DNA of 64,000 nucleotides from Escherichia coli (GTDB lineage Bacteria > Pseudomonadota > Gammaproteobacteria > Enterobacterales > Enterobacteriaceae), in the NCBI RefSeq assembly GCF_003334255.1, contig NZ_QOWU01000019.1. One strand, given 5' to 3'. The first letter of the stretch is position 1. Each line of letters opens with the position of its first letter. The notes beneath the pieces were generated by a model. That model saw only the letters and a list, made by a program, of their open reading frames with translations. It had not been told where the DNA came from and did not search any database. The position numbers and the translations under genes are program-made. Shown here piece by piece: positions 11,515 through 16,466 of the stretch.

Positions 11515-11566
11515 ATTACTAATCTCCGATCATGTTAACCGGCAAGACAATACACAAATACAAACA

Positions 11567-11584
11567 ATAATGAGAATAATTTAT
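11567..11584 (-). promoter_or_regulatory. Putative Fur box in the iha promoter region
   Basis: ATAATGAGAATAATTTAT resembles the Fur consensus GATAATGATAATCATTATC; lies ~55-70 bp upstream of the iha start in an AT-rich region. Confidence 0.45.
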
Positions 11585-14284
11585 ATTTACCTTTTACAAA
11601 AAATAAAGATTATTGACAAAACTAAATATAAATAACGACTGCCTCGGCATGCCAGTTAACAGCTATCCGTATGGCGTGTTCGGTTTTGCGAATAAAAAAT
11701 GGTTACTGTAGAAGCGGATTTCCACCACATGTCAACCATGAATGGTCAGTGGTGCGAGACGACTGGGATGATTTGGTCGATGACTTCTTCCGGCGAATAC
11801 TGATAGAAACATTGAAATATTGTAAGAGAAAGCGTTCAAAATTCTGTGGCACGTGAAAAATTCTACAGCGTCATCACCTTATTCAGTCGACCTTCAAAAT
11901 AAACGTTTAACAGAGACAATCACCATTTGGATTGTCCGCTGAGGAGGTGAACGATTTCCTAGACAGCTTTATCATGCCAGCCCACATTGTTGGCGCTGAC
12001 AATACTAAGGACAAACGATGGGGAAGTAGCTTTTTAGCGTTATTTTCGGGAGTAAAAAACGTGGTATCTTTCCGTATGTCAGTTGTATCTTGCTGGTATT
12101 CGTAGTCGTGATAGGGCATACAACGATATTTATCTTGACGTTAGTGAAGAATAAGTTGTTTTGTGATCTATGTTAATCTAGGATTACAATCCGGGCTTGA
12201 TACATCGCATCACGACTTTTATTCTCTTCAGAGTAGAATATGTTACTCCCCGTTTTACAGGCTCAGGATTTGAATTACAAATTATACTTTTAAGTGAACA
12301 ATAACCAGGGGTATTTCTTATTTCCTGAAACCAGGCTTGGCCCATTTCGGGATGAGTTTGAAAAAACTCTTGACGCATACGATAGTGATGAAATAAACGA
12401 AACAAATTACGTCAACAAACTCAGGCGTCTTGCCTGACATGCTCCTGACATCATTGATATTCACGCTCATCTGGCATATGCATTTGCGCTCTTTATGCTG
12501 CAATTCTGGCGAATGTTCATTTACAGCGTCATCAGGATGCCGTTATACTCATTGATAAAATACTAACATATAACCCTGAGAATAATCAGGGGACACGCTG
12601 GTTACTGGGGGCGGAATTGTTACGTGCTGGCAAGCATGACAGGGCTCTGTACGTATTGACAGGACATGTCAATGAATTTCCCCCCTACTGGTACGAGCTT
12701 GCTCTTTTACATTTTATGAATGAGGAATATATTAATGCTGCAACGGCATTTCGATATGGATTTTTAACAAGCATATATTGTTGAAATGCTTTGTTAGAAT
12801 CTTTATCCATTCCCTGGGGCTGTATAGTATGATTTTTCAGGTATTTCTGAATACTGCCAAATATTATTGCAAAATATTCTCTAAATTATGAATTAAATAT
12901 CCATAAGCATTATTGCCTGGGAACTGGACATATAATCACTCTTCTGTGCTAAAGGAATGTTCTGAAATGTTTAAGTGTGCAGAGATGTTGATGGTGGAAG
13001 AAGATGATAAAGTATGTGAACTTATTTTTAAACAACAAGATAATTTGATTTTAAAAATAAATCATAGATTTCCCAGAATAATTATAAAGAAATACCGAAC
13101 ATTACAAGGTAAAGTCGTATGGCTATGGATATTGCCATTTGTTATTGAATGGTTAAGTGTGCGCACTTTGGGCGCAAACAGTTAGTGAAGTAAAAGTAAA
13201 TATCATGATTATTGTTTGTTAAGGAGTGAGATGCCTGTGCGTCTGGTGTCTATTATATTCCCATCATTATTGGCGCTATTTTTGCTGGCGTAGGCATCGC
13301 CACACTATGAATATTGTGTTTGTCGTGATTCAATTTTTATTTATAACCTCTACCCGGAGCAAATTCAGGTAGGTCATGCATAAAAATATCTTTCTATACT
13401 ACGAAACTACGAAACTACGAAAATTATTTTTGTGAAAGTATTGACAACGCTAACTATTTTTAATTATATATTCATGGTGCTCTAGGCATCACATTTTCTC
13501 CATGGGGTATTCCCTCCGCCGGCACTATGTGTTGCTGGCGTTTTTTTTATCAATTCTTACTTTTTAATCCCACTGTCCTTTCCACCAGAAACATACCTCG
13601 TTTCTACTGTATTTTGAGAATATAGTTCCCAGAATACCAATTATATATAATACGTTGTAATATATGTATTCCAATTAAAGCCGTTATTATAATAATTATC
13701 ATATATGGTTCTTTTCATGTTGATTTCGTCAGAAACAGAAAATGCTGATGATGAATTGTGAATAATCAAACTGACCTCTAATTATCCTGTATGGAGTAGT
13801 GCTTATTTTCGACTCAATTTCTACTGATTATATTATGGTTATCAGTACAGTGGGTTATGAAAAACGGACTGGATCTGCCAGCAGTGCTTCTATTATTCTT
13901 CAAAAAGAACTTCAGCCGGACAATGCTATAATCCAGGGAAAGGCTATAAGCTCTGTTGGACGGAATGTGGAAATCAGCACTGGTAAAAAGGGGAACTGAC
14001 ATTAACACAAGAAGGATTCCTGCAAGCAACTGCTTATCTGTCCGGAACGCAGAATTAAAGCATGACCACACAGGAGCCAGAATACTGTGGTCGTACGCAT
14101 TCAGTATTGTGACAACTAATAGAAATAAAAATCTGGCCGGTGCGAATATTAAACGATGCGATACCGTATAGTGTAAGTCAAAAGTAACGGGGTATTTAAA
14201 CCATCTTTTCATATTTATTTAATATAATGCAGATTCTGATGTATTAGTTCAGTTGTTCGCCAGAATCAGCGCTCGATCACTATG

Positions 14285-14830
14285 CGTTTTAGCAGTGTGC
14301 TGAAGAAGTTCTTCATCACTGCGTTATTCAGACCGTTTCCTTTGTGCGGCATATTTTGTGCTACTCCATGGGGCTTTAACTTTGCCTATAGCCTGCGATT
14401 CGATATTGCCAACCCTGATCCATATGCAGCGACGGGGCATCCTCTGGCCGGGCACTGTGAATGCATCGTATAGCATCGTATTAACGATGCTCCATCACCG
14501 ACCTTTCTGACAAGCTGTAGGAGATAATTTCCCGGTTAAACAGATCGGAGAACTGGCGACAGGTACCACTTTTCCCCTGTACCGAGAACTCTGTAACATC
14601 CGCCCCCATTTTTCGTTGGCCTTTGTCAAAGTTCCGGCTCAGGATATTGGGCGCAGATCACTTATTTGGTGGACACCACTTTGTCGGATGCTTCAGATTA
14701 TGACCAGATGGATTTCGCTGGACGCTTACGATTACATGCACCATATTGTCAACGATTACGCCACTGAGTGTATGACACACATTAAAGCGTTAGGCTCAGG
14801 CCTTATTACAATGTCATGCTAGTGGGCTTG
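14285..14830 (-). pseudogene. Degraded IS3-family transposase (OrfB/integrase core) remnant
   Basis: Minus-strand translation in shifting frames gives IS3-type integrase motifs (…NNAVMKNFFSTL…, an HSD…WQY-like stretch) interrupted by stops and frameshifts; boundaries approximate. Confidence 0.35.
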
Positions 14831-14951
14831 TACGCCGTAAATATCTGCATGATACCAGAATGACCGGCAAGCTCGTCAGTGGATATAAAGAAAATCAAGT
14901 GCGCTGATAACGATGCCACATCTGTGGTTGGTGGCAATATGCAGATTGTTG

Positions 14952-15146
14952 TTATTTGTCTTCATTGCATTCTAAGAAGTGTTTCTTATCAGACCTGATT
15001 TTTTTGCCATTATTTTTAATGAGGTCTTCAAGTGGAAAATAGGTTAGGCGTTCATGTGGCAGCGCGGCACGTCCCCATTTAGTGGCAAACTCCCGTTGGC
15101 GTGCCTGTAACAGTTGCTCCAGCCTTTTTATTTTGTTCTCATTCAT
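14952..15146 (-). CDS. Hypothetical small protein (64 aa), member of a tandem array of three related small ORFs
   Basis: ORF with charged, coiled-coil-like sequence (KIKRLEQLLQARQREF); third of three co-oriented small ORFs. Confidence 0.3.
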   Translation of the reverse strand: MNENKIKRLEQLLQARQREFATKWGRAALPHERLTYFPLEDLIKNNGKKIRSDKKHFLECNEDK

Positions 15147-15199
15147 CCGGTTTTCCTCGTATGCTGCATCACACCACTGTGCTAATGAAAAATGTAATC

Positions 15200-15377
15200 A
15201 GTGTGGTGGACGTGTTTTATCCGCATTGGAATTGTCGTCAACTAAAGGAGATGAGGCCCGTTTGTATCGCAATGGGTCTATGGCGCTCATGCCCGTTTGC
15301 TGTTCGATAATGGCTTCTCTGAGCATACGGTGTTGCAGTTCTCGTAAAAACTTTGCGTCTTCTGGTGATAAATCCAT
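15200..15377 (-). CDS. Hypothetical small protein (59 aa), tandem paralog
   Basis: Manually translated (below the ORF-track length cutoff): MDLSPEDAKFLRELQHRMLREAIIEQQTGMSAIDPLRYKRASSPLVDDNSNADKTRPPH; its C-terminal codons (…KTRPP-stop) are near-identical in nucleotide sequence to those of the ORF at 15474-15671. Confidence 0.3.
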
Positions 15378-15473
15378 TGTTATTACTCGTAAAGCAATGC
15401 GCTGTAGTGCCTTACGCTACCGCGCTGATGGTTCTTATCCGTTTTATTGAATCGGAGAACAAACTGTGAGCTA

Positions 15474-15671
15474 TCAGCCTGGTGGTCTGGTTTTGCCTGA
15501 TTTAAGCCGCCGTGGGTATTTGTCCAAGAATGCTTCAAGCTCCAATCGTTTTGGCCTGGTGAATGGAGATGGGTTAAGCAAAGACTCTCGTTGCTGGTGT
15601 ACTTTTTCGCGCTGGCGCTCAAGTATGGATAATGCGATTGCCTGTAGTTCTTCGTTAGTCATTGTCTGCAC
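15474..15671 (-). CDS. Hypothetical small protein (65 aa), tandem paralog
   Basis: ORF ending …KSGKTRPPG; shares C-terminal nucleotide/protein similarity with the 15200-15377 ORF. Confidence 0.3.
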   Translation of the reverse strand: MQTMTNEELQAIALSILERQREKVHQQRESLLNPSPFTRPKRLELEAFLDKYPRRLKSGKTRPPG

Positions 15672-16397
15672 CTGGAAAGCAATTTACCGGAGTACCTCAC
15701 ACTACGACAAAAATGTTTTTATTGTTGCAACTTGCGTAATTATTCAGGTCAGTTTGGAACGCACTGTATAAACATAAATAACCTGATACTGTTGTGTGTT
15801 TTCAAAGAAAACACAGGTATTTTTCACATAAACCTTCCCCTTTTCATATCCGACCACTTAATCAAAAAACGGTTTTATACTTGTTGCCCCCACTGGGGTT
15901 AAATGTGAGACATGTCGCACTTTGTGCCATGTGTCCTCGCTGATTTTAGGCGCGGTTCATTCATTCTTTCTGTTGGCATAAAGTATGGTATCGGTTGGGC
16001 GAATGAAAGGGACTCGGGTCATGGTCAGACAATACCTGAGGCGTTAATTCGTTGAAAGAGATTGTGAATGGGGGAATAACTGAGTCTTAACTGCTGTGCG
16101 ATAGCCCGGACAGATAATTGCTCGTCGAATCTGAGACGTAATGAGTCTGGCAAATAAGTGCGAAAGCCGGTGATATCTAGTGTTGTTTGAGAGTTCATCG
16201 TTCGAGTCCATTAATACAGATGGACGCGATTGTTGCCAGACAGGATAATTTTCACAAGACGTCGCTGATGGGGCGCTTACAAGAAAATGAAATATAAGAG
16301 AAGAGCAACGGGTGAAGAAAAGTTCAAAAAATGGCTGCGGGTAGGAAGGAAACGACCGGATGGAAAGAGTCCCCCCTAAAGCAGGCTGACAGACATC

Positions 16398-16416
16398 ACA
16401 AATCTCCGGCTGGTTA
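16398..16416. repeat. IS50/Tn5-like (IS4-family) terminal inverted repeat, solo end
   Basis: Minus-strand sequence CTGTCTCTTATACACAAAT matches the IS50 outside end / Tn5 mosaic end at 17 of 19 positions; no partner end found within ~1.6 kb. Confidence 0.35.
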
Positions 16417-16466
16417 TTTGTGTATAAGAGACAGCTGAGCTGGAGGGGACCTTTTATGCGCTATTT

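Follow-up and report, generated by a model that had tools for sequence, protein, structure and literature searches.

The locus described here lies in a 64,000-nucleotide stretch of Escherichia coli DNA (contig NZ_QOWU01000019.1, RefSeq assembly GCF_003334255.1), to which we refer as the window. Between iha (9424–11514, minus strand) and fbpC/afuC (16467–17525, minus strand), the window holds a block, 11515–16460, with a GC content of 40.6% (0.406) against 49.8% (0.498) across the full 64 kb. A preliminary description, made from the letters and a list of open reading frames (ORFs), had presented this block as AT-rich, gene-poor DNA with decayed coding remnants and had asked for its base composition to be computed. 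Computation revealed that GC content is indeed not uniform: the block is the AT-richest stretch of its length in the window, fewer than 1% of sliding windows come within 0.005 of it, and a trough of 0.30–0.36 spans 12270–13825. The longest ORF of the block encodes 132 residues (13814–14212, minus strand) and the runner-up 122. In a chromosome of sequence type 69 (ST69) that is 99.6% identical, RefSeq likewise gives just small hypothetical ORFs and pseudogenes across the block. The three fragments named in the preliminary description, a frameshifted gene, a remnant of an IS3-type insertion sequence (IS) and an N-terminal fragment with a helix-turn-helix (HTH), turned out to be right in kind. 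It had also remarked that such DNA can hide small RNAs (sRNAs), and a full-length copy of one, Esr41 (also known as EcOnc14), is indeed encoded at 13476–13549 on the plus strand. Esr41 itself, a fragment of a TonB-dependent receptor gene and an IS4-type end had been missed. Taken together, the data make us highly confident that the block represents the decayed inner part of a mobile iha module, in which esr41 is the one element with a demonstrated function.

The assignment of Esr41 is based on a covariance match to Rfam family RF02676 that covers the whole model (positions 1–74 of 74) with 103.4 bits, the gathering score being 102 (E 1e-19). In the RNA, stem-loops 1 and 2 are separated by a seed that is single-stranded and C/U-rich (CACAUUUUCUCCAU), and a terminator hairpin with U8 behind it completes the layout. 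The terminator (13517–13540) has an 8-pair stem with six G-C pairs that runs into T8. In the predicted fold (−24.9 kcal/mol, z = −3.1) three hairpins form while the seed stays open. At 50%, the GC content of the gene stands out from flanks of 30–35%. If the start of the Rfam model is taken as the start of the RNA, position 13476 lies 6 nt past the −10 hexamer (5 bases between) of a promoter that can be read from the sequence at 13441–13470 on the plus strand. This promoter consists of a −35 box TTGACA (13441–13446), an 18-nt spacer and a −10 box TATATA (13465–13470), and apart from one single-nucleotide polymorphism (SNP) in the spacer it is invariant across all 16 copies compared. By eye, a CRP-like TGTGA-N6-TGACA at 13431–13446 overlaps the −35 hexamer. 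Control of esr41 by Fur was considered and rejected, there being no Fur-like site of at least 13/19 over the promoter. An Rfam scan of 8000–20000 at E-values up to 1 detected no structured RNA besides Esr41. MavR, another sRNA of O island 48 (OI-48), was discarded as a candidate, as it sits inside the ter locus and outside the block.

Comparison of natural alleles shows how well the RNA is preserved. The copy in the window differs from the allele of enterohaemorrhagic E. coli (EHEC) only by A2G, which turns an A-U pair of stem 1 into G-U, and by an additional U in the tail. Positions 10–37, seed included, are invariant in all eight distinct alleles, and across the eight variants 99.3% of cells are paired. 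Six substitutions were seen: four alter one side of a stem without undoing its pairing, a fifth affects a loop, and the sixth disrupts the basal pair of the terminator. Several observations weigh against the reading of esr41 as the one functional element. The copy in the window is just 1.4 bits over a very tight gathering score, and no compensatory double substitutions are seen among the eight variants. With identity at 95% or more everywhere, Esr41 shows no dip in SNP density relative to its neighbours, so selection cannot be shown; purifying selection was accordingly dropped as an argument, the compared sequences being too alike to tell. Expression in this strain is deduced from sequence signals, and the count of one functional element would be too low if the small ORFs at 14952–15671, which may be intact genes, are functional as well. 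As to the score, alleles with one to three SNPs (L004, L007 and L020) fall below 102 bits, a gathering score that is set close to the scores of the seed sequences. A gathering score this tight leads to natural Esr41 alleles with 1–3 SNPs being missed.

We next consider how widespread Esr41 is. A query comprising the promoter and the sRNA had matches in 695 of 5426 complete E. coli genomes, in up to three places each. In 690 of the 695 Esr41-positive genomes iha and Esr41 occur in one place; in the window, as in EDL933 and O104:H4, the sRNA sits beside iha in an acquired island. The linkage is one-way: in an evenly spaced sample, the long form containing Esr41 was present in about 14 of 33 iha-bearing rows, and roughly half of iha loci are without Esr41. 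This asymmetry, in which Esr41 is nearly always found with iha but not the reverse, bears on the published idea of Esr41–iha co-selection. None of the 696 RefSeq records that hold Esr41 annotates it, and no feature lies beneath any of the matches. Among its carriers are an ST69 strain from cerebrospinal fluid, one isolate from urine and one from septicaemia in poultry, an enterotoxigenic strain from pig and O104:H4. The literature routinely terms Esr41 "EHEC-specific", and one preprint calls it "prophage-encoded". The former label is too narrow, because extraintestinal pathogenic E. coli (ExPEC) and other strains carry the sRNA as well; as to the latter, no match was found in a phage collection of 50,697 records.

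Outside E. coli, a scan for exact 21-mers in 100,044 species-representative genomes, which diverged homologues would escape, gave one chance match (Devosia) and one mis-binned contig. The latter (L011, JAIJJM010000258.1) is a 4.3-kb contig of a metagenome-assembled genome labelled "Collinsella sp."; it is 97.8% identical to 12698–15899, carries Esr41 and is mis-binned E. coli DNA. Plasmid records call for similar caution. CP061244.1 (1.41 Mb) and NZ_CP134663.1 (4.90 Mb) are listed in PLSDB as plasmids yet are chromosome-sized, and the module is also carried by NZ_CP124741.1, a 287-kb "plasmid" of EDL933, so counts of plasmid-borne modules need care.

The surroundings of esr41 are conserved as a unit. 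From about 650 nt past the 3′ end of iha to position 15899, the window is 97–99.6% identical to O157:H7 EDL933 (OI-43/48), O104:H4, ST69 and other strains. Homology with the EHEC and O104:H4 islands ends at 15899. Beyond this point EHEC and O104:H4 have genes for an AlpA-like protein and a glycosyltransferase, two bovine or Shiga toxin-producing E. coli genomes have IS66 and atoB, and the window has IS scars followed by the fbpABC/afu operon. Since the DNA from iha to 15899 is shared while its neighbours differ, the block is best seen as the conserved interior of an iha module of approximately 7 kb that was inserted into several islands. The module would comprise, in addition to iha and esr41, a dead shiA-like gene for a tetratricopeptide-repeat (TPR) protein, a dead 5′ stub of a second Iha/IrgA-type receptor gene, scars of IS3, IS66 and IS4 that are nested, and three small orphan ORFs probably derived from a P4-like element.

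Given this content, one might regard the whole block as junk: acquired, H-NS-silenced DNA in which Esr41 is, outside EHEC, an unexpressed relic. Silencing by H-NS is plausible from composition, low GC (0.30–0.41) being the only H-NS-relevant feature seen, and pseudogenes or IS scars do occur throughout. The block is also dispensable, as roughly half of iha-positive genomes (ST131, for example) have lost everything past 12003, and the SNP density of Esr41 does not fall below that of its neighbours. However, the promoter, seed and terminator of esr41 are intact and identical to those of the experimentally active EHEC allele, and substitutions in the stems preserve pairing. Moreover, the part of a review that deals with Sudo et al. 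describes plasmid-borne Esr41 as acting in K-12 too (PMC9387321), so its targets are not specific to EHEC. We therefore consider it very improbable that the block is nothing but junk, and retain the view of a decayed module with a functional esr41.

What is known of Esr41 comes from EHEC. It is a Hfq-dependent RNA of about 70 nt that was discovered independently as Esr41 and as EcOnc14, and in EHEC it is encoded in SpLE1 (OI-43/48) adjoining iha (PMC5286369). There it pairs directly with the chuA, cirA and bfr mRNAs and represses them, as verified by compensatory mutations; its expression in DH5-alpha confers resistance to colicins Ia and Ib, and deletion of esr41 leads to a gain of fitness under low iron (PMC5286369). 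Esr41 also represses ler and the enterocyte effacement locus (LEE) and raises fliC expression and motility (PMC8565820, PMC9387321, PMC7873438). Activity of plasmid-expressed Esr41 in K-12, too, is on record in the account that a review gives of Sudo et al. (PMC9387321).

In the host of the window Esr41 is expected to act by the same mechanism. Transcription would start from a sigma-70 promoter of its own, whose −35 box is the consensus, and end at the intrinsic terminator; the terminator hairpin and U-tail would together serve as the usual module for Hfq binding. The single-stranded C/U-rich segment that separates the first two stem-loops would pair with the cirA, chuA and bfr mRNAs where ribosomes bind, and so block their translation. 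Reduced translation of these mRNAs would in turn lower iron uptake by the corresponding routes and make the cell resistant to colicins Ia and Ib. The ter cluster, which in EHEC stood in the way of testing colicin sensitivity of an esr41 deletion, is absent from ExPEC carriers. Since the seed is identical to that of the EHEC allele, Esr41 should have the same targets in this ExPEC-type host. Sequence identity, structure, promoter and terminator signals, synteny and distribution were computed here, whereas Hfq dependence and targets are taken from the literature; expression and activity in this strain are what we infer from the two. Plain duplex energies of Esr41 against the start regions of window genes were uninformative; that for iha (−16.7 kcal/mol against a mean of −22.7) represents below-average pairing.

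Upstream of esr41 lies a variable-number tandem repeat of the octamer ACTACGAA (13398–13422; Tandem Repeats Finder: period 8, 3.1 copies, 100% matches). Three copies are present in the window, and they end 18 nt 5′ of the Esr41 −35 box. Copy number at 15 other loci (14 separate places) is one in six cases and two in another two, the remainder having 8, 8, 9, 11, 13 and 14. EDL933, O104:H4 and FHI_NMBU_10 have a single copy, while ST69 and the poultry strain have two. The number changes even between near-identical genomes (99.6–99.7% over the block), the closest relatives of the window carrying two copies. With each copy, the DNA farther upstream moves by some three quarters of a helical turn, much as happens with repeat tracts upstream of some phase-variable promoters.

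Downstream of esr41, a gene for an Iha/IrgA-type TonB-dependent receptor has left a 5′ fragment, from the plug domain, at 13832–13993 on the plus strand. It aligns with residues 27–91 of Iha (BLASTP: 42% identity, E 2e-10; tblastn: E 1e-8), with identities of 42–45% over Iha residues 27–82/91, and with positions 28–91 of the NF010012 (PRK13486) profile (E 2e-6). An intact receptor of this type would have a plug and a 22-strand barrel encoded by an ORF of some 700 residues; here only the equivalent of residues 27–82/91 is recognizable. The stub is frameshifted past about 55 codons, and weak similarity continues to about 14170; the IS3 remnant then cuts it off. A protein database search for an intact orthologue gave nothing but copies of this fragment in E. 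coli and Shigella, and a match at 78% identity proved to be just an EHEC-type locus. Between 126 and 150 nt upstream of the receptor-like coding sequence, which starts at 13832, three overlapping 19-mers resembling the Fur box (14/19, 13/19 and 13/19) cluster at 13682–13706, overlapping a possible ATG at 13703. This cluster might be what remains of the operator of the dead receptor gene, but it carries little statistical weight where DNA is this AT-rich: 14/19 was also reached by shuffled sequence in about 29% of trials (58/200), and we do not claim a Fur site here.

The dead receptor gene lies about 280–350 nt downstream of esr41 and on the same strand. Tentatively, esr41 might thus be the survivor of an older cassette of an sRNA and an Iha/IrgA-type receptor rather than the original partner of iha, and outside O157 the copy number of ACTACGAA might tune its expression; that both parts hold together seems rather unlikely to us. 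If they do, Esr41, with its presence in about 13% of complete E. coli genomes, ExPEC among them, would regulate iron uptake and colicin sensitivity in a strain-variable manner across pathotypes rather than being an EHEC-specific sRNA.

The frameshifted gene that the preliminary description placed at about 12290–12790 is real, but its extent had been underestimated. According to tblastn with intact 347-residue plasmid homologues, a shiA-like TPR pseudogene spans 12270–13146 on the plus strand. The TPR proteins of IncF plasmids are covered over residues 1–72, 117–213, 212–235 and 233–336 in three frames, and relatives are named "tetratricopeptide repeat protein" or "ShiA-like protein" in databases. 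Thus, instead of an intact ORF of about 347 residues with TPR repeats, there is a colinear remnant damaged by an internal deletion of about 44 codons, at least three frameshifts and several stop codons. Plasmid copies share 72% DNA identity with it. The 72-residue "hypothetical protein" that RefSeq annotates at 12968–13185 is the C-terminal piece of this pseudogene, and the call looks spurious.

The mobile-element scars all lie on the minus strand. The IS3-family transposase remnant, earlier put at about 14285–14830, is located at 14283–14835 in a six-frame translation. It matches only positions 202–326 of the 369 in NF033516 (E 4.4e-22; 78.8 bits against a cut-off of 160) and contains frameshifts and stop codons, in keeping with the RefSeq label of a "DDE-type integrase/transposase" pseudogene. 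The HTH-containing N-terminal fragment, reported at about 16020–16200, corresponds to an ORF at 16025–16198 that matches the IS66 accessory protein TnpA; it covers positions 1–45 of the 190 in NF038385 (E 1.2e-13; 51 bits against a cut-off of 150) and so is far from full length. It forms the 5′ part of tnpA within an IS66-family left-end remnant, 15914–16280, which shares 77–84% identity with tnpA regions of plasmid IS66 elements. The terminal 154 nt or so of an IS4-family element follow at 16281–16434. They are 87–92% identical to unannotated stretches on many plasmids, and homology stops exactly at 16434. The outermost 19-mer, CTGTCTCTTATACACAAAT (the reverse complement of 16416–16434), is one that we take to resemble the outside end of Tn5/IS50, and also the Nextera mosaic end, at 17 of 19 positions. 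The segment 16281–16434, present on many plasmids, is genuine genomic DNA and not an adapter artefact.

Between the IS3 and IS66 remnants, three small ORFs (65/62, 59 and 64 residues) occupy a single reading frame at 14952–15671 on the minus strand, the first and second being paralogues. Searches of Pfam, NCBIfam and PHROG found no family match for them. HMMER searches against 1.84 billion representative sequences did find relatives of 59–92 residues with 50–77% identity and the C-terminus KYPRRLK(S/A)GKTRPPG. One of these relatives (L021, 4761–4988) is encoded in a P4-like island, between AlpA/integrase genes and a gene for a D5-type primase. This raises the question of whether the block hides intact genes missed by annotation, with the small ORFs as real cargo. 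The 62-residue ORF matches relatives of 62–63 residues over their full length, at the identities given above, with the same start and the same KYPRRLKSGKTRPPG end, and RefSeq calls two of the three ORFs. On the other hand, apart from the lack of family matches, the ORFs are frameshifted in some genomes (L006 and L008), the second is without the conserved C-terminal motif, and together they span only about 0.6 kb of the 4.9 kb. An account of the block as cargo of this kind is possible, though unlikely, and we keep to the decayed iha module with esr41.

The preliminary description had further suggested that the block contains regulatory elements for iha, and one could extend this to the view that it is mainly cis-regulatory DNA, activating or silencing, for that gene. 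The block is directly upstream of iha, AT-rich DNA commonly nucleates H-NS binding, and Fur controls iha. A Fur-box-like 19-mer, AATAATGAGAATAATTTAT, at 11566–11584 agrees with the Fur consensus at 13 of 19 positions. It falls within the iha upstream (promoter/regulatory) region, 11515–11726 (minus strand), which is the sole portion of the block common to a 90%-identical plasmid copy of iha (H101, query 314–2727). However, divergent iha copies share the sequence only to 11726, and ST131-type loci keep iha intact with an IS (end TGGATTTGCCCC...) at 12003, all beyond it being gone, esr41 included. Most of the block, moreover, is recognizable as dead coding and IS DNA. The suggestion thus holds for at most the first 210–490 nt or so and fails for the rest, and a predominantly cis-regulatory role of the block is, in our estimate, extremely unlikely.

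Some further observations concern this end of the block. SNP density peaks on this side of the block, with 14 per 100 nt at 11900–11999. A 56-nt sequence at 11940–11995 recurs inverted, at 89% identity, next to another IS in an ST131 chromosome (L009, 466–521) and may be a short mobile-element scar. A 60-residue "hypothetical protein" annotated by RefSeq at 11453–11635 in near-identical genomes overlaps the start of iha on the opposite strand and looks spurious.

At its far end the island terminates at a tyrosine integrase gene (24542–25723 onward), which in a near-identical ST69 chromosome abuts ulaE. Since the whole window yielded no tRNA gene, integration did not take place at a tRNA gene inside it. 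Elsewhere in the window, Rfam matches above the gathering score are the ES239 sRNA (47932–48054) and the RpsF leader (28049–28133) on the plus strand, and STnc450 (51406–51463) and ES036/CssrF (51543–51585) on the minus strand.

The occurrence of Esr41 at this place is in itself already known: it is an Rfam-curated sRNA in a known neighbourhood and would be ordinary to a specialist. What is new is modest and consists of its wider distribution, the one-way linkage with iha, the promoter-proximal repeat and the corrected anatomy of the pseudogenes. The practical lesson is to look for sRNAs in AT-rich, gene-poor DNA next to a virulence gene before labelling it junk; here, such a screen recovered an experimentally characterized one.

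How does the locus compare with known systems? The closest counterpart is Esr41/EcOnc14 of EHEC O157:H7 (SpLE1/OI-43/OI-48), with which the window shares the 74-nt sequence save for A2G and one U, the three-hairpin fold, the promoter, and a location on the strand opposite to iha, some 2 kb away from its start. They differ in that iha-esr41 here adjoins fbpABC/afu, uhpC, a two-component system and an integrase gene, with no ter/ure island, and in that the upstream octamer is present in three copies rather than the single copy of O157:H7. In the 99.6% identical ST69 chromosome, the iha-esr41 block is also near lutABC and hly genes. The TPR remnant resembles ShiA and the shiA-like TPR proteins of SHI-2, ExPEC islands and IncF plasmids in aligning along the whole 347 residues, with 47–70% identity per segment, but the gene here is dead and yields no functional member of that group. 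RyhB, the iron-sparing sRNA of the core genome, is unrelated to Esr41 in sequence. The ryhB gene is repressed by Fur, whereas the Esr41 promoter is without a Fur-box-like site of at least 13/19. Like Esr41, RyhB is Hfq-dependent and acts on bfr, chuA and cirA (PMC5286369), but the two have opposite effects on cirA, which RyhB activates and Esr41 represses.

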